Assembly: GCF_963506605.1 (NCBI RefSeq)
Contig: NC_083287.1
Location: 57,722,001 to 57,786,000 of the forward strand
Length of the DNA: 64,000 bases
Direction: 5' to 3'
Source: Zootoca vivipara
Lineage: Eukaryota
Shown: positions 16,901 through 50,555 of the stretch, piece by piece
How positions within the stretch are numbered: the first letter of the stretch is position 1
How the letters are laid out: the number at the start of each line of letters is the position of its first letter
The notes under the pieces: generated by a model
Databases searched by the model: none
Told to the model about the DNA's origin: nothing
Seen by the model: only the letters and a program-made list of their open reading frames with translations
Position numbers and translations under genes: made by a program

Positions 16901-19073
16901 ATAAATAAATGCAGAGCTGAGAGGCGATGTGATGGCACCGTAAGGGTCTATCTCGGGGGTGGCCTGTAAATGTGTGGGCGGTGTTGTGTAAGGCAGTTCA
17001 TGCACTCCAAATCTGCTCCCACAAAAGATGCACAACTGGAGTGATGGGTGCCTCTAACCCTCTGCACCCTGCTGCTTATCCGTCTGCAGTGATTTATCCG
17101 AAGCTTAGAAGCTTCATTATGTCACTTCCCTTGACCGGAGTCAGACTCAGGGGAAAGTTTCTGGCTGTGTGTATTCAAGATCTGTCTCGTTTCTGTCTTA
17201 GTTTCTCATCTGTGCTAGATGAGATTGGCACAGGGACCATCCCAGCTTTTGCTCTGCTCCTCCCTTGCAGCCTGTCTGTGGCCTGAAAAAAGTGTTTTAG
17301 CTGACCCCAGGAAGATCACTAACCTCACCCTGCTGATGAGAATTCTCTGTTTAATGCAATAGACCAGTGTCTCCCAAGCCGTTTCTGGCCATCACCTCCT
17401 TCCCAGTGCTCCCTACTCTACCCTATCAATCAAAAACATTATTCAGAATAGCGGTTTGCATGGCACACATAGGAAGATAATAACACAACAAAATTCAAAA
17501 CGGTAATAATCAATTGCACATTTGCACAAAATCCAATTAAAACTAATTAATTCAACAAAACGGATGAACTTGATCCCGCAATCCCAACGATAGTCCTTTG
17601 CTCTTCTGGCGGCCCGGCTGCTGCCCCTTGCCTCGTAGTGACCCCTCCCTAGGCAGCCCCACACTTTCCATATGACCTTTTGGAACTTTTGAGGAAACTC
17701 TTGAGGAAAAACTTACCAGAGTTGCTCCGAATGGAAGAGCAGAGTTCTGTAAGCCTAGAATTAGAGAAGAGAAGAATGAATGAGGAGGGGCCTTGCCTTT
17801 CACACCAAAGATGTTAGACCATTTAACTTTTCACCGCAGAAATAAGCAGTTGTGTACAGAACATGTTTGTGTGCGAAGTATATCCTTCTGTATCTTATAG
17901 GGAAATGTCATGTCATGTTAGGCTTCATTATCCTCTCACAATATTCATCCAAAGAGATTGTGGTATATTTAGCAATTCCTAACATAGCTTCTTCCTGTGA
18001 TGACAGTTGTAGCTCAGTCGGTAGACCACGAGCCTCTTAATCTCAGGGTTGTCGGTTCGAGCCCCACATTAGACAAAAGATTCCTGCATGCAGGGGGCTG
18101 GACTAGATGACCCCCGGGGTCCCTTCCAACTCTATGAGTCTACGATTGTATTTTTTTCTGAAGGGCTTCAGGCTTGAGAGGGCTCTTGTGCTCGGATCCT
18201 GCTTGAGGGCTTCACTTTGGAGCACCCGGTTGGCACTGTGAGAACAGAATGTGGGACTCGATGGGTCACTGGCCTGATCCTGCAGGCTCTTCTTATGTTC
18301 TTAAGGCTGCAGGATGGCCCCCTTGCCATGCTCTTTTACACCTATAACAGTCTTTGGCCACCCTCCACTTGGTTCTGTAAACCCACCCCCAGGGCCCTCT
18401 GCCCTATTCTGCCCAAAGCATAATTCACAATAGTGGTTTGCACGGCCCACTAAGGAAGGAAACAACACAATGACATTCAAAAGAGTAAGAAACAATTGCA
18501 CATTTGTTTAAAATCCAGTTAAAACTATTTAGCTTAACTGATTCAGCAAAATGGGTGTCCAGTGACAGCAGCTTTTCAAAGTCAGTTATTTGCACCTCCC
18601 CCCCCCCCGCTTCCTCCCTTTCCCTCTTAGTGCCCCCTAAATAACCCCACCCATTTTGGGAACTACTGATCTACAAAAAGCCCCTAGAAGGGAGATTTGT
18701 AGTTCAGTGTCTCCAGCCTAGAAGAACCAGGTACACCCCCCCCCCCGAGCCCCTTGGAGGAAGTCAAGGACATAAGCAAACAGTGTCCTGCAGCATTTTG
18801 TTACAGCTCCCCTTGTGTTTTGCTCAGTTGCTTCACAGCAGAGTACTAAACTGGCTTGGCCCTGGAGGAGGAGGTCAGCAGGGAGCAGAAGGTTGCTGTG
18901 GCTTCAAACCACTCAGTCGGGCTCCAGAAGTGCAAGTCTGCTCCTTGTAATTCCATCTGTATATTTTTTGTTATTTTAGTCGGGTATTTTCAGTGTCCCC
19001 TGAAATAAATCCACCCTCCCATAGCAAAGTTTATGAAAAGGAATTAAACACCTTCTTACCATTTGATGTCCAT
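13904..19073 (-). CDS. GIMAP: GIMAP-family GTPase with two tandem AIG1 domains (GIMAP8-like architecture); complement(join(13904..14550,15991..16713,17717..17754,19060..19073)), 473 aa
   Basis: Two G domains (GKPGAGKSATGNTILG..DTPA..PGPHALLLV and GKSGVGKSATGNTILG..DTPA..PHALVLVVPVGRFT). All three introns are GT-AG with consistent phases 2, 1, 1, giving 1422 nt (474 codons) from MDIKW to the stop. Confidence 0.85.
15278..15630 (+). mobile_element. Sauria SINE, full length (in GIMAP intron)
   Basis: GGGACGTGGGTGGCACTGTGG head, B-box GGTTCAAATCC, TTTAACTTTA tail; inserted into a (TAC)n run. Confidence 0.9.
18002..18150 (+). mobile_element. SINE with tRNA-Lys(CTT)-like head and CR1-type 3' tail
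   Basis: TAGCTCAGTCGGTAGA..CTCTTAATCTCAGGG..GGTTCGAGCCCCAC followed by GGACTAGATGACC..GGTCCCTTCCAACTCTA. Confidence 0.85.
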
Positions 19074-19156
19074 CTCTGCTAAAGAAATCTTTCTCCAGCG
19101 TCTCTCTCTCTCTCTCTCTCTCTGGGCTGTGAATTCTGCAGAGATAAATGCTTTCT

Positions 19157-19168
19157 AGTTTCACTTTC
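19157..19168 (-). promoter_or_regulatory. ISRE/IRF element upstream of the two-domain GIMAP
   Basis: AGTTTCACTTTC (GAAAGTGAAACT on minus), about 85 bp 5' of the ATG. Confidence 0.6.
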
Positions 19169-19995
19169 AAGAGCAGCCTAGTTCCCTTCCTGTCATTGCA
19201 CTGCACTGCCCACATCTGCAGGCAGCTGTCTCTCTACGCCCAAACAGGCTGCTGTAATCCAGGCACCCAGTTGAAGGCCCTTCCGGATTCTCTGTTGTTC
19301 TGAAAACCAAGAACAGCCCAGGAGAAGCCGGAAGCCAGCCCTGTTCTCCCCAGCAGTTTGGATGTCCGTTGGACCCAAAAGTGCAGGCTTCACTGGCTAG
19401 GGGATTTATTTATTTTTTAAAGTAATTGCTTTGGTGCATCCCAGGTCCCTCTGCATCTGAGCTGAAAGCAGCAACCTCCGGAGAATAAGACCCACGGGCA
19501 GCACTGCAGGGCTGTTGTGTTGCAGTTGGGCAAGGAAGGGGGTGGAAGATCCTCTCTCAGGCACCCCCCCTTTCATCACTCATGCAAAATCATCCTGCAA
19601 GTCTGCTACCTGCTTCCCACCTCTAGAGGTGCAAACCTTTCCAGAAATCACGTTCAGTCTATTCATTATGCGTAGGGAACATTCAGTATTTTGGGCAGTG
19701 TGATTCGAAGATTCGAAGGATTTGTGCATCCCCGTTTCTGAGAGGGAAGAGACTCCAGGAATGCCCAGGAATGAAGGTCAATATTAAATATTCAACAGGG
19801 GGTTTCCACTCCTTCTTGAAATTAGCCTCTTTTGATCTCTAATTTTCATAGTTACATTTGCCTATTCGGCATATTCCGTCAGTTGTAACTGCCAATCTTC
19901 TTTGGTAGTAGTTCAAAGGATACAATGGTTTCAAAACGTCTCTTCTGTAATTGGATTTATTTATAAAGGTTTATACGTCAGATGAAGTATATATA

Positions 19996-20038
19996 CCAGG
20001 ACAGGGCCCTGTTTCGAATAGTCTTCTTCATCAGCTGG
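19996..20038 (-). ncRNA. Minimal type-I hammerhead ribozyme (Penelope-associated)
   Basis: Minus strand reads CCAG-CUGAUGA-A-GAA(GACUA)UUC-GAAA-CAGGGCCCUG-UC-CUGG. It has the complete core, stem I CCAG/CUGG, a palindromic stem III and a GUC cleavage triplet. Confidence 0.8.
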
Positions 20039-20061
20039 AATAAGTCAAATATACATTCATT

Positions 20062-20539
20062 GTTGTTGTTGTTGTTTAGTCGTTTAGTCGTGTCCGACTC
20101 TTCGTGACCCCATGGACCATAGCACGCCAGGCACTCCTGTCTTGCACTGCCTCCCGTAGTTTGGTCAAACTCATGTTCGTAGCTTCGAGAACACTGTCCA
20201 ACCATCTCGTCCTCTGTCGTCCCCTTCTCCTAGTGCCCTCAATCTTTCCCAACATCAGAGTCTTTTCCAAGGATTCTTCTCTTCTCATGAGGTGGCCAAA
20301 GTATTGGAGCCTCAGCTTCACAATCTGTCCTTCCAGTGAGCACTCAGGGCTGATTTCCTTCAGAATGGATAGGTTTGATCTTCTAGCAGTCCATGGGACT
20401 CTCAAGAGTCTCCTCCAGCACCATAATTCAAAAGCATCAATTCTTCGGCGATCAGGCTTCTTTATGGTCCAGCTCTCACTTCCATACATCACTACTGGGA
20501 AAACCATAGCTTTAACTATACGGACCTTTGTCGGCAAGG
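20062..20539 (-). mobile_element. BovB LINE short 3' fragment
   Basis: About 98% identical to 23403-23884; (CAA)n tail. Confidence 0.93.
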
Positions 20540-21427
20540 AGGAGGAGGAGGAGGCATCACCTGGTGGAGCGTCAGATCCTCAGGTGGAACAGGAAGTCAC
20601 AGGTGGATTTCCTCTTTGCCCTGTGGGATTCCCAGCATGGGAGGGAGTCCTGGAGGGAGGACAAATAACCCTACAGGTAGTAACCAGGCCAGAAGGAAGG
20701 CTCTGCTGGGCCCTCCACACTCGGAGGCAGCAAACCCTTCTGGGTACCAGTTTCTGGAAGCCACAGGTGGGGAGAGATGCTCTGGTGCTCACATCCTGTT
20801 TACAGGTTTCCCAGAATGGGCATCTGGTCTGCCACTGTGAGAAGAGGATGCTGGACTAGTTGGGCCCATTGATCCAAGAGGTTCTTCATAGAATCGTAGA
20901 GTTGGAAGGGACCCTCCAGGGTCATCTAGTCCAACCCGCTGCAAGGCAGGAATATGCAGCTGCCCCATTAGGGGACTGGACCTGCAACCTTGGCCTTATC
21001 AGCACCGCCGCGCTCCAACCAACAGAGCTATCAGGGTCAAGTCTCATGTTCTTTATGTGCTGGAGGGTAAGATCCTGGGACGGCACTGTTTCTCTGGCTG
21101 GGAGTGAGCCTCACTGCAGGGGCACAGGCAATGGGTGCCAGGGAAGACCCTGCCAGCTCCCTCCTGACCTAGGGTGACTTTAGGAGCAGGGCTGTGGCTG
21201 AGTGAAGGAGCATCGGCAGATCTCAGCTTCGATCCTGGGTAGGCCCCTTGAAGTCTAATCGTGGTCAGAGGTACAAAAGGAGGCTACCCAGGAAGCAAGG
21301 CCAAGCTGTGGATCTTTATCGGTCTGCTGCAACAAAAGAAGTCGTTTTATTTCTGCAGTGCAGGGGATGGTCTAGATGACCATAGGGGTCCCTTCCAACT
21401 GCAATTCTGTTTAGGGAAGCTTTTAAT

Positions 21428-21563
21428 CAGGCATCCCCAAACTGCGGCCCTCCAGATGTTTTGGCCTACATCTCCCATGATCCCTAGCTAAGAGGACCAG
21501 TGGTCAGGGATGATGGGAATTGTAGTCCAAAACATCTGGAGGGCCGAAGTTTGGGGGTGCCTG
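21428..21563 (+). mobile_element. 136-bp hAT MITE
   Basis: Same TIRs as 12148; TSD CTTTTAAT. Confidence 0.92.
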
Positions 21564-21672
21564 CTTTTAATATTTAATAGATTACATTACATTTTAATGT
21601 TCTGTTCTGTTGGAAGCTGCCCAGAGTGGCTGGGGAAACTGTCAGATGGGCAGGGTATATATAATAATAAAA

Positions 21673-21725
<53 letters not shown>

Positions 21726-23402
21726 TATGATCCTCTCCAGAATCTTCCATTCAGCTCCACTGGATGTCATTCTCATTCTAGTGCAATGAGAAAGGCATAG
21801 CTGCCAAGTTTTCCCTTTTCTCATGAGGAAGCCTATTCAGCATAAGGGGATTTCCCTTAAAAAAAGGGAGAGAAACATTTTCTCGCTTTCTCCACTGGGT
21901 GCCTCATTTTTAAAACTCCCCAAATGTTCCAGCCTTTCTTCATTGGGGAGTTGCGCCTTAATCCTTTGGCTTGCCCTTTCCTGCACATTTTTAATCTCCG
22001 CCTTTTATTTTCGCCTGCAAAAGTGTTTCCAGCCCAGATCTCCAGTTGCAACAAGGCCGGGCAGGCTCAGGCAATGCTTCCTTTGCCTTCCTCTTTCCCA
22101 CGGCTGGGGCGTTCGGGAACCGTATCCCAAAACTGCTGAAGGGCAACAGGTTGGCAAACGCTGCCTCCCTGAGAATCCCAATTAGTGGGGGATTAAGAAA
22201 ACCTTGTGAAATATCGGCAGCCGGTCTCTTGGGAACTCACACCAGCGCAGCGTTGGCTGCCAACCTAAGCAGTGCGGAAAAGGGCTTGGACCAATGCATG
22301 AAGCCCAGTGAGGCTGGTGCATAGATAAACTGTGGAACTCCCTCCCACAGGATTAGGCAGATTCATGGAGGAGGAGAGGGCTGTCGATGGCTACTAGCTA
22401 CGATGGCTCTCTATCCTGCTTCCATGGTCGAAGGCAGCAATGCTTCTGAATCTCAGTTGCTGGAAACCACAGGAAGGGGAGAGTGTTGCTCTTGCGCTCG
22501 AATTCTGTTCGCGGGTTGGCCACTGTGAGAACAGGATGGTGGAGCTTGATCCTGCAGGCTCTCCTTACACACCAATCTCTGAACGGTGCAAGATTCCAAG
22601 GGGTTCCCAGCGCTCCGCCGGGGGTTTTGTTTCCTTTTGGGAATGAGAGAAAGGGGAGACTGTGGTGTTTCCAAGATCTATATACACACACAAGCTGAGC
22701 CTACGATGAAGGGGTTCACAGCATTAACACCCAAGAAGGCCTTGCTTCTCCCATGGCCAAAGCCTTGGAGCCCAGCAGAAATCAGGCATGGCTTTTTCTC
22801 TGCCTTTCCGGCCTGCAGCTTTTGCCTCCAGCTTCTAGCTCACAGTTCAACTCTCAACTCTTCCCCTTTGTCTTTCTAACTAACCAGGAAGGGAGCCCAT
22901 CTGTTTGTCCTCTGGCACAGAGCTACATCTTTTGTTTCCTGAAGGGCTCCTACTTAGCAGGCCATCAGCAGGCTGGCCTGGCTATCTCAGCAATTGGATC
23001 CATGCTGGTTGCAGGAATTAGAAGGGGAAGCATTTGGGCATTCGTATGTTGTCTGTTGTCAATGGAGTGCGCCTTCAGGGGTGAAGTCAGATTGCTGCAT
23101 TAGCAGCCTGGAGGTGACCTCTCAGGGGCGCAAGCCTGGGCAGTGTGCCTGGAGGTCCTGGGCTGCCCAGACAACAAGACCCCCTTCTCAGCCTCGCTGA
23201 TGGGGTCCAAAGGAAAACAGAGCAAGATGTTTGGCCCCAGGAGGCGTACAAGGCACCATCCAACCGTCTTAGGGACTCCACTCTGGAATTGTGTAGGGTT
23301 TATTCCTGAGCCCTTTCTTCTTCCAGAGATGTTTCCATCTGATAGCCATGTTCAAATGTATAGCCATGTTCAAATATATGATAGCCATGTTCAAATATAT
23401 GA

Positions 23403-25545
23403 TGTTGTTGTTGTTGTTGTTTAGTCGTTTAGTCGTGTCCGACTCTTCGTGACCCCATGGACCATAGCACGCCAGGCACTCCTGTCTCGCACTGCCTCCC
23501 GCAGTTTGGTCAAACTCATGTTCGTAGCTTCGAGAACACTGTCCAACCATCTTGTCCTCTGTCGTCCCCTTCTCCTAGTGCCCTCAATCTTTCCCAACAT
23601 CAGGGTCTTTTCCAAGGATTCTTCTCTTCTCATGAGGTGGCCAAAGTATTGGAGCCTCAGCTTCACGATCTGTCCTTCCAGGGAGCACTCAGGGCTGATT
23701 TCCTTAAGAATGGATAGGTTTGATCTTCTTGCAGTCCATGGGACTCTCAAGAGTCTCCTCCAGCACCATAATTCAAAAGCATCAATTCTTCGGCGATCAG
23801 CCTTCTTTATGGTCCAACTCTCACTTCCATACATCACTACTGGGAAAACCATAGCTTTAACTATACGGACCTTTGTCGGCAAGGTGATGTCTCTGCTTTT
23901 GAAGATGCTGTCTAGGTTTGTCATTGCTTTTCTCCCAAGAAGCAGGCGTCTTTTAATTTCGTGACTGCTGTCACCATCTGCAGTGATCAAGGAGCCCAAG
24001 AAAGTAAAATCTCTCACTGCCTCCATTTCTTCCCCTTCTATTTGCCAGGAGGTGATGGGACCAGTGGCCATGATCTTGGTTTTTTTGATGTTGAGCTTCA
24101 GACCATATTTTGCGCTCTCCTCTTTCACCCTCATTAAAAGGTTCTTTAATTCCTCCTCACTTTCTGCCATCAAGGTTGTGTCATCTGCATATCTGAGGTT
24201 GTTGATATTTCTTCCGGCAATCTTAATTCCTGCTTGGGATTCATCTAGTCCAGCCTTTCGCATGATGAATTCTGCATATAAGTTAAATAAGCAGGGAGAC
24301 AATATACAACCTTGTCGTACTCCTTTCCCAATTTTGAACCACTCAGTTGTTCCATATCCAGTTCTAACTGTAGCTTCTTGTCCCACATAGAGATTTCTCA
24401 GGAGACAGATGAGGTGATCAGGCACTCCCATTTCTTTAAGAACTTGCCATAGTTTGCTGTGGTCGACACAGTCAAAGGCTTTTGCATAGTCAATGAAGCA
24501 GAAGTAGACGTTTTTCTGGAACTCTCTAGCTTTCTCCATAATCCAGCGCATGTTTGCTATTTGGTCTCTGGTTCCTCTGCCCTTTCGAAATCCAGCTTGC
24601 ACTTCTGGGAGTTCTCGGTCCACATACTGCCTAAGCCTGCCTTGTAGAATTTTAAGCATAACCTTGCTAGCGTGTGAAATGAGCGCAATTGTGCGGTAGT
24701 TGGAGCATTCTTTGGCACTGCCCTTCTTTGGAATTGGGATCTAGACTGATCTTCTCCAATCCTCTGGCCATTGCTGAGTTTTCCAAACTTGCTGGCATAT
24801 TGGGTGTAGCACCTTAACAGCATCATCTTTTAAAATTTTAAATAGTTCAGCTGGAATATCATCACTTCCACTGGCTTTGTTATTAGCAGTGCTTTCTAAG
24901 GCCCATTTGACTTCACTCTCCAAGATGTCTGGCTCAAGGTCAGCAACCACACTACCTGGGGTGTACGAGACCTCCATATCTTTCTGGTATAATTCCTCTG
25001 TGTATTCTTGCCACCTCTTCTTGATGTCTTCTGCTTCTGTTAGGTCCTTACCACTTTTGTCCTTGATTATGGTAATTTTTGTACGAAATGTTCCTTTCAT
25101 ATCTCCAATTTTCTTGAACAGATCTCTGGTTTTCCCCATTCTATTGTTTTCCTCTATTTCTTTGCATTGCTCATTTAAGAAGACCCTCTTATCTCTCCTT
25201 GCTGTTTATTGGAAATCTGCATTCAGTTTCCTGTATCTTTCCCTATCTCCCTTGCATTTTGCTTGCCTCCTCTCCTCCGCTATTTGTAAGGCCTCGTTGG
25301 ACAGCCATTTTGCCTTCTTGCATTTCCTTTTCCTTGGCATGGTTTTCGTTGCTGCCTCCTGTATAATGTTACGAGCCTCCATCCATAGTTCTTCAGGCAC
25401 TCTGTCCACCAAATCTAAATCCTTAAACCTGTTCCTCACTTCCACTGTGTATTCATAAGGGATTTGATTCAGATTGTATCTTACTGGCCCAGTGGTTTTT
25501 CCTACTTTCTTCAGTTTAAGCTGGAATTTTGCTATAAGAAGCTTG
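23403..25545 (-). mobile_element. BovB (RTE-clade) LINE, 5'-truncated, with RT domain
   Basis: ORF 23421-24659 has QAGFRKGRGTRDQI, FIDYAKAFD, GVRQGCILSP and LRYADD; upstream ORF pieces are interrupted; (CAA)n tail. Confidence 0.96.
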
Positions 25546-25618
25546 CTATAAGAAGCTTTGCTATAAGATTTTGCTATAAGAATGTTTTTGCTATACATTC
25601 ATTAGAGACCCTCTAAGC

Positions 25619-25752
25619 CAGGCATCCCCAAACTGCTGCCCTCCAGATTTCTGGCCTACAACTCCCATGATCCCTAGCTAACAGGACCAGTGGTCAGGGA
25701 TGATGGGAATTGTAGTCCAACAATCTGGAGGGCTGAAGTTTGGGGATGCCTG
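25619..25752 (+). mobile_element. 136-bp-family hAT MITE
   Basis: Same TIRs; TSD CTCTAAGC/CTCTAAGA. Confidence 0.9.
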
Positions 25753-25907
25753 CTCTAAGAACATTGAATTATAATACAAGCATATCTATATCACAATATT
25801 AAAAAATCTTTAACATATCTGGGCAAATATAACAATGAAAAGATATTCTTACCAAGTTGTACATGTAGTTCAAATTAGATAACCAAAGTGTGTTTGTAAT
25901 ATATATA

Positions 25908-26253
25908 GGGACCCAGGTGGTGCTGTGGGTTAAACCACAGAGCCTAGGGCTTGCTGATCAGAAGGTCGGCGGTTCGAATCCCTGCGACGGGGTGAGCTCC
26001 TGTTGTTCGGTCCCAGCTCCTGCCAACCTAGCAGTTCGAAAGCACCTCAAAGTGCAAGTTCTGGCGGGAAGGTAAACAGCGTTTCCGTGTGCTGCTCTGG
26101 TTCACCAGAAGCGGCTTTGTCATGCTGGCCACATGACCTGGAAGCTGTACGCCGCTCCCTCGGCCAATAACGCGAGATGAGCGCCGGCTGCAACCCCAGA
26201 GTCAGTCACGACTGGACCTAATGGTCAGGGGTCCCTTTACATTTACCTTTACC
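25908..26253 (+). mobile_element. Sauria SINE
   Basis: Homologous to 15278-15630; TSD TAATATATATA. Confidence 0.92.
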
Positions 26254-26710
26254 TAATATATATAGGAAGGAAACTATGTGTGTTCTAATACAAACTCAAA
26301 AGTTTAAAGGTTTAAAGAGGCAGTGGTACTAAATCTCTCTTAAAGATACAGTAAGGAATAAGGCAGATTACAGAAAGGAAGTAAAGTCTTGATGGTTGTT
26401 TAGAACTAAGGGAGAGATAGTGCTAAACAGGTGAATGAACTTAGTCTCTCGTTGTAACAAAAGTTTATCTACTGTATATTCTGGCGATGGAAACGATCTA
26501 GGGGTACGTAGCTTCCAAATAACAAAAAACAAAAAGTCATCTTCTGTGTGTTTGCATTGCATGTAGCGTTCTACCAGCGGTGCTTCCACGATTTCGTTGC
26601 GTATTCTGGATTGGTGTTCATTGATCCTAAATTTTACTTGCCTGGAGCATTTACCAATATACATCATTCTTCTCCTGTGGCTTTTATCTTGAATTTTGAA
26701 TCCTGCCTGC

Positions 26711-37520: not shown

Positions 37521-40500
37521 TGTTATGTACTGAGCTGAATCCTAGAACAATAGGATTCAGAATCAGCGGGAGCTACCCAATCCAACTCCAGGTGGAAGTG
37601 AATCCGCAACCTGATTGGCCTGCTGGAGCAGCCAATCAGGCGGCTGGCAGAAGTGAATCTGCTACCTGATTGGCCTGTAGGAGCAGCCAATCAGGCTGCA
37701 GGCAGAAGTCAATCCACAATATAATTGGCCCACAGGTGTAGCCCTGAAGTAGCCAATCACGCAAGGCCCATTGTGTAAATAATGTATATAAGCAGATGGT
37801 TTTGGGAAAAGAGCCATTCGTCTTCTCTTCTCCTCCTTGATGACTATGAGCTGAATTAAGAGCATGAAATTCACTCTTGACTCCGAGTATATTTCACTGG
37901 CGACGAAGGTGGGATCCTGCTGAGCTGACCGCCACCACGCACTGCACCGCAGCACCGCCACCTGCTGCACCGCTGCATCGCACCGTGCATCCAGGCTTCA
38001 GCTCCAGGACCCAAGGAACCCAGAATGGCAACTGACAGCAGCTTCTCGCCATTCAAACCAGCATCAGGAGACTGGGAAGGGTACGCCACCCGTTTCAACT
38101 TCCTCCTGCAAGCGAAAGAAGTCACCAACGATGCCATGAAGAGGGCAACATTCTTCAGCGTCTGTGGAGAGGAGACGTTTGAAATCGCCCGGGCTCTCCT
38201 TGCACCTAGAGATGTCGCTACCGTCTCTTACAAAACAATAATGGAACGGCTGAAGGAGCACTTCTCACCACAGCCCTCGGTGGTAGCTTGCCGAAATGCC
38301 TTCTACGCAAAGCGGCAAGCCCCGGGGGAAACCATAACTGGGTTTGTGACCTCCCTCCGCCAAGCCGCCCGGTTATGCAACTTCTCAGAATTGGAGAACA
38401 TGCTTCGTGACCACCTCGTCGGTGGCCTGAGGGACGAGATGTTGCAACGGCGCCTCTACGCCAAAAAAGACCTCACGTTCCAGATTGCTCTGGAGGAAGC
38501 CCTGGCAACCGAAGCCGCCGAGAGGTCAACGCAAGAGGCACGACCGGCCCCGCCATCCCAACCGAGGGTCTACCACGAAGACCTCACCGACGAATCCGAA
38601 TCTGACAGGGAGGAAGTACACCGAGTACAGCGGCGCACTCAAGCAGCACACACACCACAGCAGCCTCGACGAGAAGGAGGGAACTGTGCAAGCTGCGGGG
38701 AGAACCACGAGAGGAGGACCTGTCGTTTCCGCAACGCAGAGTGCAGGCAGTGCAGAAAATTGGGACACATCGCCCGGGTGTGTCGGGCTCGACTCACCCG
38801 TCGACAAGCATCAGATGACCGACCCAGGAGCCCCAGGTCACACGGCACCATGCACCAAGGCAACTCGACGGAGATCACGGACTACCAGGTATTCCAGTTG
38901 CCCCATCCCAGCACAGAGAAAATTTATATAGAGGTACAGATAGAGGGAGCCCCATGCCGCATGGAGCTGGACACGGGTTCAACTCTATCCATAATCTCGG
39001 CCCGAACATTAAGGGAACTGTGCCCTAATGGGGGCCCCAAACTAAGGCCGGCCCCATTCACCCTCCGGGACTTCCAGAAACGTAAGGTCCCTACAATGGG
39101 GGTGGGGACCTTCAGGGTGCAATATCGAGGGCGAAAGCAACAATTGGACTTGCTGGTAGTTAAGGGCCCCTACGTTAGCTTACTGGGACTGGCATGGTTT
39201 GGACCTCTGGGGCTAGCCGTTACCGGGGTGAACCGCACTAGCTTACAAGTGGACGTGGACGCCATATGCAAAGAGTTTCCAGGGGTTTTCGATGGGGCAT
39301 TGGGACGATATACAGGACCCCCCATTGCCCTACAGCTAGACCCCGCTGTACGACCCATCAGGCACAAGGCCCGCCGGGTCCCGTTCGCCCTGAAACCCCG
39401 CATAGACGAGGAATTGGACCGGCTCGTGGAGCAAGGAGTGCTGGAGCCGGTGCCCAACGCCCCCTGGGAAACTCCAATTGTCACACCCGTCAAGCCTAAC
39501 GGTTCGGTCCGCATCTGTGCAGACTACAAATGCACCATAAACAAGGCTCTCACGGCCCATGCATACCCAGTGCCAGTGGTCAGCCATGTCCTCGCCACCC
39601 TGGCTGGGTCAAAAAATCTTTGGCAAACTGGACTTGGCCCAAGCGTATCAACAGTTGCCTGTGGACGAAGCCACAGCAGAGGCTCAGACGATTGTGACGC
39701 ACAGAGGGGCATTCAGAGTAAAGCGGCTGCAATTTGGCGTTAGCGTGGCACCAGGCATATTCCAGAATCTAATGGACTCTCTCCTTAAAGGGATTCCTGG
39801 CGTCACCCCCTTCTTCGATGATGTACTGATCGCCGGGCCCACACCAGAGGAATTTGAGGACCGCCTCCGCTCCGTCCTGCACCGTTTCCAGACGGCGGGC
39901 CTCAAGGTGAAGCGGGAAAAGTGTTTACTGGGAGTGCCGCAGGTGGACTTTCTGGGATTTAAGGTGGACGCAGAAGGGGTCCATCCAACCGGTGACAAGG
40001 TACGGGCCATTTGTGAGGCCCCAGCGCCCAAGAGCAAGCCCGAACTTCAGTCATTCTTGGGACTATTGAACTTTTACCATGCCTTCCTTCCCCATAAGGC
40101 AGCGGTAGCGGAGCCCCTACACAGACTCCTAGATAAAAGGGCCCCTTGGGTGTGGGGCCAGCGACAAAGGGCCGCATTCCAGGCAGTCAAGGACTTGCTC
40201 GTCTCGAACTCGGTCTTAGCACACTTCGACGAGAGGCTGCCAGTGGTGCTGGCATGCGACGCCTCTCCCTATGGCATCGGCGCTGTCCTGGGACACCAAC
40301 TCCCGGATGGAAGAGAGGTGCCGGTGGCATACTTCTCCCAGACGCTTGCTGCAGCCGAACGAAACTACTCACAGATTGACAAGGAGGGTCTGGCAATCGT
40401 GAAGGGCGTAAAAAAATTCCATGATTTCTTGTACGGGCGGCCCTTTACCATAGTGACTGACCACAAGCCGTTGCTTGGCCTGTTTGCCCCTGAGAAGCAG

Positions 40501-42482
40501 ACCCCCCAAGTGTTGTCTCCACGTGTCCTCAGGTGGTCAATTTTCCTTGCCGGCTACCAGTATGCACTAATCCACCGCCCTGGGAAGGCGATGGGCCACG
40601 CAGACGCCCTCAGCAGGCTACCACTACCAGAAACAGGCCCCGACCCAGCGCCTGCGCAAGAGGTTATGACCCTGGAGCTGCTTCCCGACCGACCCATTCA
40701 GGCACAAGAAGTTGCGCACCATTCCACAAAAGATAGGGTCATCTCCCGGGTCCTGGACTGGGTGTGGCGAGGATGGCCCAGCAGCAGCCCCGGGCCAGAA
40801 TTCGCTGGCTACACAAACCGCAAACATGAACTGTCGGCCCACAAGGGGTGCCTGTTATGGGGAAGCAGGGTTGTTGTTCCCCAGCCCCTCCGCAAAAGGG
40901 TCCTCACAGCCCTACACGAGACACACCCAGGGGTAGTGAGGATGAAGGCCCTTGCCAGGAGTTATGTGTGGTGGCCGGGGATTGACAGAGAGATAGAGGC
41001 CTGGGTCCAACACTGCCAGACCTGCCAAGAATCCCGCCCGGATCCCCCAAGGGCCCCAGTCCAGCCCTGGGAGTCCGCCCGACATCCATGGTCACGCTTG
41101 CACGTGGACTTCGCTGGCCCCTTCCAGGGAAAAACATTCTTCATAGTGGTGGATTCCTACACCAAATGGCTGGAGGTTGCACTGGTACCATCCACTGCTA
41201 CGGCGGCAGCCATCCGGGTACTCCGTAAGCTGTTTGCGACCCACGGGCTCCCTGACACCCTCGTCTCGGACAATGGAACCGCATTCACGTCAGAGGAGTT
41301 CCAGACCTTCACAGCGCAGAACGCCATCCGCCACATCCGCTCAGCACCATTCCACCCTGCCACCAATGGCCAAGCGGAGCGCATGGTGCGGACCACCAAG
41401 GACAGCCTCCGCCGCATGACACAAGGGGACTGGGAATACCGCCTTGCCGCATTTCTTCTAGCACAGCACAGCACCCCAAGCACAACGACGGGCCGGAGCC
41501 CAGCTGAATTACTAATGGGCCGGCGCCTTGCAACTAGACTGGACCGACTTCACCCCGACAGAGCTCAGGATGAGGTAGTGGTGGGGAAAGGCAGGAACCC
41601 CCGGACATTTGTGGCCCAGGACCCAGTGTATGCAAAGAATTTTGGGGCAGGCCCAGCATGGGTACCCGCCACAGTCACCAAGGTGACCGGTCCCGTGTCG
41701 TACGAGGTACTAACGGAAGGGGGGCAATGTTGGCGCCGCCACTGTGACCAGCTACGGCGACGATTCCCAGGAGGAACCCGGGAGGAGAGCGGGACAGAGG
41801 GGTCCCAAGGGGACAGCAGGGCAGTGAGGCCTGTAGAGCGAGAGGGGTGGGCAGGGGAAGCAGAAGCAGTAGGCACAGAGGGGCGCCCCGAGGCTGGAAG
41901 GACACCGGAACCAGAGCTACAACCTAGTGGTTCAGTGGCGCCAGACCAGACAGCCCTGGCACAGCCAGCAGCCTCGGAACACGAGCCAGAACCAGAACCC
42001 CTGACCAAGGAACACCCCAGGCCACAATGCACACGGAGGCGGCCAGCAGACCTTGGGGACTACGAATGCAACTTCCCGGGCAGGACTGGAACTTAGAGGG
42101 GAGGGGTGTTATGTACTGAGCTGAATCCTAGAACAATAGGATTCAGAATCAGCGGGAGCTACCCAATCCAACTCCAGGTGGAAGTGAATCCGCAACCTGA
42201 TTGGCCTGCTGGAGCAGCCAATCAGGCGGCTGGCAGAAGTGAATCTGCTACCTGATTGGCCTGTAGGAGCAGCCAATCAGGCTGCAGGCAGAAGTCAATC
42301 CACAATATAATTGGCCCACAGGTGTAGCCCTGAAGTAGCCAATCACACAAGGCCCATTGTGTAAATAATGTATATAAGCAGATGGTTTGGGGAAAAGAGC
42401 CATTCGTCTTCTCTTCTCCTCCTTGATGACTATGAGCTGAATAAAGAGCATGAAATTCACTCTTGACTCCGAGTATATTTCA
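37521..42482 (+). mobile_element. Ty3/Gypsy (Mag-like) LTR retrotransposon, full length
   Basis: 376-bp TG..CA LTRs (37521-37896 and 42107-42482, 3 differences). TSD TGCCC. PBS TGGCGACGAAGGTGGGAT (37898-37915) is complementary to the tRNA-Ser(GCU) 3' end. PPT at 42095-42106. Confidence 0.98.
38025..42096 (+). CDS. Gypsy gag-pol polyprotein (Zn knuckles, protease, RT, RNase H, integrase); one frameshift at 39611-39616
   Basis: CASCGENH..C and CRQCRKLGHIARVC knuckles, LDTGS protease, RT FFDD, RNase H CDASPYG..TDHKPL, integrase HETH..CQTC and D..SDNG..ER. Confidence 0.92.
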
Positions 42483-48312: not shown

Positions 48313-50555
48313 CTGCCCATCTGGCTGGGTTTCCCCAGCCACTCTGGGCTGCTCCCAACAGAATACTATTATTATTAATAATACAGCGATAAAACTTCAA
48401 GCATTAAAAACTTCCCTAAACAGGGTTGCCTTCTATAAGTCTGAGGGTTTTTTTATTACCTTGACATCTGATGGGAGGGCGGTTCAGCAGGTGTTCAAAA
48501 GTTGGCTCAGACGGCACCAGCTGAATCTCCAGTGGTAAGGAGTTCCACAGGACTGGGCCGATGATACCAGAAGCTCAGACATGATGCCCACCCTTCCACT
48601 CTTCTCTTCCTCGGATTTTGGGAGGTGGGAGGTGCCTGGGTGGGATGCCATCCTGACGCACATCTGCAAGAACCTAGAAAGATGCCCTTGGCTGCATCAG
48701 GACACTGGTTCGCTCAGCTCATCCTTGCCTGCAGTGGCCAAAGCTTGGATAGTTAATTTGTAAAAGGAACTAGTTCAAGTTCAAGATGCCCCCAGAGGAA
48801 CGAATTCTACTTCACAGTTGTCCTGTTATGAAACAAACTTGTTTGGTTCATGCTCAGTTACAAGCTGCTGTGCAGAATTATGAAACATACTTGCATAACT
48901 GTTTATACCAATGGTCCTCTCAAACTATTTATAGTTTCTTGGTTAGCCAGTCATTTTAATAATTGTTGTTTTTATGTGCCCTGAGATCTGTGGATGAGGG
49001 ACAGTATAATAATAATAATAATAATACTGTAATCACACGTTGTGTGATATTTTACATGAGTTGGTGCTATATAAACACACAAACAAACACACACACTTCT
49101 GTTTTACAATTTAAAATACTAATTTTAACATCCTGAAAATATCAATGATTTCCCTTCTCTTTCCATGTTTCCTTTAAACCATTCAGTATTCCATTATTGC
49201 ATCCATCAAAACTTATTTACACTGTTGAATCTATCAGGTGTACACAATTATTTCCCATATATTCAATAAACATTTCCCAACCTGTTCTTCTTCTGCTTTT
49301 ATTTATACATATGTATAAGCTGAGCCTAGGGCTTGCCGATCACTGAGCCTAGGGCTTGCCGATCAGAAGGTCGGCCGTTCGAATCCCCGCGACAGGGTGA
49401 GCTCCCGTTGCTCGGTCCCAGCTCCTGCCCACCTAGCAGTTTGAAAGCAAGTCAAAGTGCAAGTAGATAAATAGGTACCGCTCCGGTGGGAAGGTAAATG
49501 GCATTTCCGTGTGCTGCCCTCGTTTCCCAGATGTGGCTTTGTCATGCTGGCCAATAACGCGAGATGAGCGCTGCAACCCCAGAGTCAGTCACAACTGGAC
49601 CTAATGGTCAGGAGTCCCTTTATCTTTACCTTTACGCTTTACATATGCATTCAGTCTCTGTGAGGATCAGAAAACCAGGTAATTCTCAACACTCACACAT
49701 TAAGAGGGATCCCACTAGAAGTGGTTGCTCTGATATGTTTGCTGACCAGATCTTCGCTGTCTTTCAAAACCCGCAGGAAATCAAGAACTGAGGATCGCCC
49801 TTGTGGGCAAGACTGGAGGCGGCAAAAGCGCCACAGGAAACACCATTCTTGGCCAGAAGCTCTTTGATTCGAAACTTCAGGCCAGGACAACCACCTTGGC
49901 CTGCCAAAAGGCGTCTTGCATTTGGAGAGGCTATGCCGTGTCCGTGATTGACACAGCGGATATTTTGGGCACAGGAGCTTGCGATGAAAGGCTGGACCAG
50001 GAGACCAAGCGTTGCCTCGACCTCTCTCAGCCTGGCCCTCACGCGCTTGTGTTTGTGACCCAAGTGGGCCGCTTCACCGCGGAGGACAAGGAGGCAGCCC
50101 AGCGAGTCCGGGACATGTTTGGGACGGAGGCCATGAAGCACACCATCCTCTTGTTCACCCGCAAAGAAGCCTTAGAAGGCAACTCTTTGCAGGATTACGT
50201 GATGCAGTCAGAGAATGAGGCTCTCCGGAAGCTGGTCCAAGAATGTGGGGGGCGCTTCTGTGCTTTTGATAACAGGGCGGCAATAGGAGAACGAGATGAC
50301 CAGGTCTCCGAGCTGATGGAGATGGTCATGAAGATGGTCCAGGGGAATGCAAGGCCATACCTGGAGACGCCCATCATGGAGGCAGCGCTTGGATATTACA
50401 TGGCAGGAGGCAGGAAAAGGGCCAAGGGAGAGGGGAAAGGGAAAGCTCGCAAGGGTTTCAGCTACAGAACAATATTTCTCGTCCTGTGTGTGTTTGGTAC
50501 AGGGCTTTACTTTCTCTCTCGATTTCTCCCCATTAGCAGAGCTGGGGATTTTTAA
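47959..50555 (+). CDS. GIMAP: GIMAP-family GTPase with C-terminal transmembrane anchor (GIMAP1/5-like architecture); join(47959..47977,49777..50555), 265 aa
   Basis: Motifs GKTGGGKSATGNTILG, DTAD, PGPHALVFVTQVGRFT, TRKEA, FDN; hydrophobic tail TIFLVLCVFGTGLYFL. Phase-1 GAG|GTAAG donor matches CCGCAG|GA acceptor; AATAAA at ~50805. Confidence 0.92.
49320..49635 (+). mobile_element. Sauria SINE, 5'-truncated, with a 23-bp duplicated 5' end
   Basis: CTGAGCCTAGGGCTTGCCGATCA twice, then SINE body and TTTACC tail. Confidence 0.88.

Follow-up and report, generated by a model that had tools for sequence, protein, structure and literature searches.

The window, that is, the whole stretch of 64,000 nucleotides of Zootoca vivipara DNA analysed here, carries on its minus strand a hammerhead ribozyme motif that lies a short distance upstream of a GIMAP gene on the same strand. 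The question that this locus raises is where the motif comes from, and whether it does something for the gene next to it. The reading that we consider likely is that of an intact hammerhead of a Penelope-like element (PLE) whose stem I is formed by the end of an intron, and which lies beside GIMAP as an inert passenger; it belongs to a family in which splicing would dim the ribozyme and dimers would be the cutting form.

Read directly from the sequence, the minus strand from 20038 to 19996 has a complete type I layout with an intact core (Table 1). The catalytic boxes CUGANGA and GAAA and the UH triplet are all present, and three helices are possible, with the ends joined in helix I and a fold that is predicted to be favourable only as a dimer. 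A preliminary description, made from the letters alone, had written out the same motif, and its letters, stems and predicted cut all match ours. It is also right in that stem I can be extended past a U-U mismatch (by 3 pairs) and that stem III is a self-complementary palindrome (12/12 positions; duplex -24.3 kcal/mol). On the other hand, the word "minimal" has to be dropped: the motif fails the strict published min-HHR consensus, with a helix II that is short (3 bp) and a helix III that is long (the 12-nt palindrome). An AATAAA is found at 19961 (-), 38 nt past the predicted cut, and recurs in most of the aligned family copies.

Table 1. Features of the hammerhead locus, its host element and the neighbouring GIMAP gene, in window coordinates
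Feature	Position	Strand	Remarks
Neptune-type Penelope-like ORF, 3' end (endonuclease C-terminal part)	26368..26670	-	5'-truncated; stop ends 26368
3' pseudo-LTR, first 114 nt	26254..26367	-	contiguous with ORF in L003, L004, L006, L017, L020
SINE, 344 bp	25910..26253	-	13-bp target duplication 26254-26266 and 25897-25909
Pseudo-LTR leader exon	25853..25909	-	ends at GTAAGA donor
Pseudo-LTR GT-AG intron	20035..25852	-	native 134 nt, now 5,818 nt
MITE inside intron	25611..25752	.	8-bp target duplication, one mismatch
BovB block, 5,530 bp	20062..25591	-	perfect 12-bp target duplications 25592-25603, 20050-20061
BovB-type LINE piece in block	23405-25590	-	RT domain by Pfam; short iterated filler adjoins
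2.8-kb copy of nearby DNA in BovB block	20542-23332		
Short BovB 3' piece in block	20062-20539	-	
Type I hammerhead motif	19996..20038	-	4-bp stem I, extra A9.1, 3-bp stem II, GUC triplet
Stem I 5' strand	20038-20035	-	
CUGAUGA box	20034-20028	-	
Extra A (9.1)	20027	-	
Stem II, 3 bp, G-C closing pair	20026-20016	-	
GAA box	20015-20013	-	
Stem III, perfect 12-nt palindrome	20012-20001	-	
C17	20000	-	predicted cut 20000/19999
Stem I 3' strand	19999-19996	-	3 more pairs possible beyond U-U mismatch
Pseudo-LTR remainder	19903..19995	-	ends ~130 nt after C3
GIMAP first coding exon	19060..19073	-	ATG 19073; matches P0001 N-terminus; not part of element
GIMAP middle exon	17754-17717	-	
GIMAP AIG1 exons	A from 16713, B to 13904	-	neighbour of element

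Searches with motif models, which the same description had proposed, gave a divided result. A hammerhead descriptor found the motif as its single match in the 64-kb window (2/300 approximate dinucleotide shuffles match), whereas the Rfam hammerhead families gave 0 matches for the motif at the gathering threshold and also 0 at E values up to 10. Folded as a single strand, the 43-mer scores like its shuffles (z 0.06). The energy of the fold thus says nothing in favour of the motif, whose reality rests on the core and on the family to which it belongs.

This family is large. Counted as pattern matches over the genome, the core alone is found 1,437 times (control 148) and TCCAG directly 5' of the core 185 times (control 0), and a search for similar DNA in the same genome returned 48 matches, in 40 of 131 candidates scored. 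The core is shared by other copies of the element: core and palindrome together have 67 exact matches in the genome, the control 0. Both the 20 copies that were scored and the 29 that were aligned had been chosen by motif or BLAST, which inflates conservation, and the intact core seen in 9/20 close copies is therefore an upper estimate. In the alignment of 29 copies 87% of the cells are paired, compared with 15-42% for slid partners, and the G10.1-C11.1 pair is G-C in 26 of the rows. Two-sided changes occur in 2/3 pairs of stem II and once in stem III (L077); stem I is mostly invariant and shows little covariation. The value of 4 of 500 from the shuffle control of the alignment tool should not be read as a probability. 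Since the motif is common and intact cores are frequent among dead copies, neither the intactness of the window motif nor its position is surprising.

What is private to the window copy is its 11-nt stem II, which has no other match in the genome within 2 mismatches. We considered this stem as a mark of a subfamily and rejected it, as it has 1 genome match within that distance. It has 3 bp, compared with 1-2 bp in the nearest relatives, and, judging from the aligned letters, probably arose by a 3-nt duplication and substitutions. A private and longer stem II could hint at selection, although it also permits a slipped register that is predicted to be slightly more stable (see below).

The motif belongs to a truncated, dead Neptune-type PLE, in whose 3' pseudo-LTR it is the hammerhead. 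Five relatives (L003, L004, L006, L017 and L020) run without a break from the end of the Penelope-like ORF to the hammerhead, and these contiguous copies, together with the reconstruction of the interrupted 3' end, bear out the Penelope origin that had been proposed for the motif. In uninterrupted relatives the distance from stop to hammerhead is 295-324 nt (4 copies measured). In the window it is 6,329 nt on the DNA, and 288 nt without SINE, MITE and BovB composite, both in agreement with the earlier figures of about 6.3 kb and 290 nt. Only the last 100 codons of the ORF and the pseudo-LTR are present. The ORF fragment is 91.8% identical at the nucleotide level to L003, the closest long copy, and has 62% amino acid identity to the C-terminus of the RT-bearing ORF of L080 (RVT_1). 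The stop had been described as that of a GIY-YIG domain; it is indeed the end of the ORF, but the GIY-YIG assignment comes by way of this relative, the Pfam match of the fragment itself being weak (E 0.086, below the cut-off). We call the element Neptune-type by motif and not by tree: the cysteine linker CX2-5CxxC and a CCHH motif are found in L003, L080, L082 and L083 (in the window this region is truncated away), and inverted pseudo-LTR pairs in L062, L064 and L080. Two other loci (L079, L084) hold a young Neptune-type family in head-to-tail tandems of 3,781 bp; it has another hammerhead and two overlapping frames, of 252 and 748 codons, and is probably still active.

The large distance between ORF and motif is due to later insertions. 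A SINE, which we take to be of the Sauria type, struck the start of the leader, at about the probable transcription start of the element, and a MITE and a 5,530-bp block landed within the intron. The LINE pieces in this block are presumably BovB. One 12-bp target duplication surrounds both of these pieces and a 2.8-kb copy that is 94-96% identical to DNA about 24 kb away (source G000:C12:57716554-57721899, L040); two of the junctions in the block carry short iterated filler and the third likely a 7-base microhomology. A single insertion event in which the template was switched twice would account for the block. A 3' transduction by BovB from a ready-made source is unsupported, as neither end of the DNA from which the 2.8-kb spacer was copied carries BovB. 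At its 3' end the element adjoins a broken frame at 19780-19900 (-), which, we assume, resembles the end of a LINE-1 ORF2.

What the preliminary description overlooked is a 3' splice site that overlaps stem I and competes with the ribozyme fold. Stem I takes its 5' strand from a GT-AG intron, whose last four bases stand immediately before C3. In the unspliced copy L017 the donor lies 134 nt before C3, and L007, L014 and L025 join that same leader directly to C3; the window copy (donor 25852, acceptor 20035) has a native intron that matches that of the family. The same design of intron and hammerhead is found in five subfamilies altogether, with introns of 99-332 nt and the acceptor always at C3. 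For 5/6 spliced leader-end types there is an unspliced partner; the L041/L042 type is without one among the loci examined. We see that precisely spliced and unspliced forms have both been copied into the genome.

The two forms differ in how far they extend. None of the 12 spliced copies reaches the ORF, compared with 9/15 of the unspliced ones (p 0.001), and if only independent loci are counted, with the window and the protein-selected L061 dropped, the numbers are 0/10 and 7/13 (p 0.007). Furthermore, the upstream ends of the spliced copies fall at about one position, at most 70 nt before the donor. Copies with a short leader that never include the ORF would derive from the mRNA leader, and their common upstream end places the start site, we infer, where the SINE later inserted. 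In the window copy the canonical branch point (-26 in L017) is stranded upstream of the BovB block, so that splicing of this copy is doubtful.

What would splicing do to the ribozyme? Folding was predicted by ViennaRNA with core tertiary contacts ignored, and the monomer, for which a 4-bp stem III is possible, may therefore be underestimated. In its 171-nt context the monomer is predicted to fold into a hairpin that is inactive (P 0.93), whereas stem I forms with P 0.002. For the unspliced dimer of the window motif the predicted double hammerhead reaches -32.3 kcal/mol, compared with -32.9 for the co-fold optimum and -17.2 for two monomers; the optimum is a slipped register of stem II, 0.6 kcal/mol more stable. 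A double hammerhead so near the co-fold optimum supports the earlier suggestion that the palindromic stem III belongs to a dimer-type architecture. The modelled spliced dimer, on the other hand, has -21.7 compared with an optimum of -27.5, that is, it lies 5.8 above it. In 6/6 natural pairs the stem I duplex is predicted to be weaker after splicing, by 2.0-6.6 kcal/mol. The spliced forms keep the core-proximal G-C pair in 6/6 cases and four stacked pairs with G-U wobbles in 3/6, and for this reason the weakening may be a by-product of the splice consensus and not a switch.

A partner in cis with a compatible palindrome is found nowhere else in 94 kb. The other hammerhead in these 94 kb (L040:950-994 (-), about 29 kb downstream) has a helix III that is not complementary. 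It lies outside the window, about 9 kb before its first position, and is a minimal hammerhead of another family, with a long helix II and a 4-nt palindrome.

We tentatively propose, and rate at somewhat below an even chance, that in lizard Neptune elements a spliceosomal intron switches the hammerhead on and off, in such a way that the spliced leader is disarmed and intron-retaining copies cut as dimers. The lone motif would fold into the inactive hairpin and conceal its cut site. Two motifs that retain the intron would pair by the 12-nt palindrome, form the double hammerhead and be cut after GUC. Splicing would replace one strand of stem I with a poorer one and so dim the ribozyme in the mRNA leader; the dimmed leader copy would keep its capped 5' end, whereas the copies downstream would stay armed. 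Both forms reached the genome by way of uncut RNA, and cleavage would therefore have to be slow, late or assisted by a protein. Slow or assisted cutting fits the metazoan PLE hammerheads, for which no monomer activity and low dimer activity are given in the sections of PMC4209133 used here, and the Poseidon hammerhead of Anolis, which according to parts of PMC11167929 cuts only with its protein and at whose cut site no RNA-seq ends were found.

Maybe, however, there is no splice gate at all. The copies would then be ordinary fossils of a ribozyme that works about equally in both forms or barely works, and the overlap with the acceptor would be compact packing; we find this somewhat doubtful, if quite conceivable. 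Insertion of an Anolis PLE in vitro is described, in part of PMC11167929, as unaffected by hammerhead mutants, and the retrotransposition of both forms uncut and the four stacked pairs kept in half of the spliced forms point in the same direction. What speaks against it is that the weakening has the same sign in all six pairs, and that the acceptor is fixed at C3 although the length of the intron varies more than threefold.

The splice switch and its setting are to be compared with what is known of such ribozymes. Lunse et al. 2017 reportedly deals with dimeric PLE hammerhead variants. PLE hammerheads, their palindromes and their abundance in reptiles have been published (Cervera and De la Pena 2014, PMC4209133; for this and the following papers the comparison covers sections of the text). 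With the pseudo-LTR hammerheads described there the window family shares the CUGANGA and GAAA boxes, the extra base between 9 and 10.1, the G10.1-C11.1 pair, a short helix I, a palindrome in helix III, and thousands of dispersed single copies per genome. It differs in helix II, with 1-4 bp compared with about 6-8, and in helix III, where the 12-nt palindrome stands against a helix that is absent or 2-6 nt long; the turtle and snake rows of the supplement are of the minimal kind. As in Penelope of Drosophila virilis (PMC4209133), the pseudo-LTR intron ends 5' of helix I and there are spliced and unspliced forms. In the aligned rows for D. virilis, however, the intron ends four bases before C3 and a 2-bp helix I is identical in both forms, whereas the lizard AG lies directly before C3 and forms the two core-proximal pairs, so that the whole 5' strand of stem I is replaced on splicing.

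Poseidon PAc of Anolis is likewise a lizard PLE with a pseudo-LTR hammerhead, and its copies end past an uncut hammerhead; it differs in that it belongs to another clade and its ORF begins inside stem II, and the main text of PMC11167929, in the sections compared, does not mention an intron. The Neptune PLEs treated in PMC8557442 have an RT followed by a GIY-YIG endonuclease, an order that may hold for the lizard family too, and share with it the cysteine linker, the CCHH motif and tandem or inverted pseudo-LTRs, the cysteine linker being common to Neptune and Nematis, and that paper, in the part compared, states that both the role of PLE hammerheads and the reason for intron retention are unclear. 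For vertebrate PLEs the literature compared here describes no acceptor directly at C3, though any of Lunse et al. 2017, Arkhipova et al. 2017 and Repbase, which lie outside this comparison, may describe one; the layout is absent from the compared parts of bioRxiv 10.64898/2026.07.22.740005, PMC6765202 and PMC7761336. As far as sequence comparison goes, the locus appears to be an ordinary dead copy, and the novelty would lie at the level of the family, in the acceptor AG within stem I.

There remains the GIMAP gene. From the cut site to the ATG at 19073, which agrees with the database model P0001, there are 926 nt, close to the 0.9 kb given before. The gene had been called a two-domain GIMAP, and this is so only in part: P0001 is a one-domain model of 279 aa that ends after the first AIG1 exon, whereas in P0002 and P0003, the relatives from Podarcis, splicing continues into the second and gives two domains, and both AIG1 exons are present in the window. 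Where the Podarcis relatives imply the acceptor of the second exon, the window has AA, and an AG in the right phase follows 12 nt later. The nearest GIMAP proteins in the database are those of lacertid lizards. In the same region we see a further GIMAP exon on the other strand (49746-50555, +), a Ty3/gypsy-type LTR retrotransposon (37929-42096, +) with two long overlapping frames, protease and then RT, RNase H and integrase, and, just outside the window, a GTPase-like frame of 981 codons (L088:1-2943 (-)).

How much weight should be given to the closeness of motif and gene? Assuming about 1,290 net motifs and 20,000 genes, about 9 sense motifs are expected by chance within 1 kb upstream of some start codon in the genome, so that this closeness is likely due to chance. 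About 90 nt upstream of the ATG there is an interferon-response-like element (19159-19168, -); the window holds 13 occurrences of the pattern GAAANNGAAA, compared with 3.9 expected. The presence of this element near the ATG suggests that GIMAP has its own promoter well downstream of the hammerhead. Three raw RNA runs, about 6% of each of which was read, gave a depth of 0-0.21 over 18620-20024 in 3/3 runs, with GIMAP exon A almost uncovered, that is, GIMAP is silent in these runs, which are therefore uninformative as to a role of the motif. RNA ends at 20000/19999 formed no pile-ups in 3/3 runs, at a coverage near zero. A search of the literature found no report that links a hammerhead to GIMAP.

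In the light of these results it is very improbable that the motif has been retained because it cuts BovB/Penelope read-through RNA ahead of the GIMAP promoter, as the preliminary description had suggested. Such a cutter would lie, as this motif does, on the strand of the gene and close upstream of its ATG, with two sense BovB pieces upstream, and the intact core and private 3-bp stem II would suit it. The placements expected by chance, the predicted inactivity of the monomer together with the absence of a cis partner in 94 kb, the splice acceptor that overlaps stem I, and the near-zero depth and lack of end pile-ups in all three runs (where GIMAP is silent too) speak against it and leave the suggestion unsupported. 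Moreover, the 3' product of a hammerhead begins with a 5'-OH and serves poorly to trigger torpedo termination directly.

We give just as little credit to the pseudo-LTR as an alternative GIMAP leader that starts near 25905 and is spliced over the 5.8-kb intron to 20034, with a dimmed ribozyme in the 5' UTR: donor and acceptor are intact, MITE and BovB block are both intronic, and Penelope of Drosophila is reported to have an internal promoter that overlaps its intron (in part of PMC8557442), but the canonical branch point is left upstream of the BovB block, a SINE occupies the start site, the stretch from the cut site to the GIMAP ATG contains 13 ATGs and two AATAAA, and the three RNA runs, at their near-zero depth, hold no supporting reads.

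The window copy beside GIMAP is likely an inert passenger, and for the GIMAP gene the finding most likely means nothing. For the family, the end of the intron and the hammerhead use the very same bases in five subfamilies, and natural versions of the ribozyme, spliced and unspliced, are at hand in the genome. If true, the intron switch would explain why an intron and a ribozyme have been kept together in one repeat.
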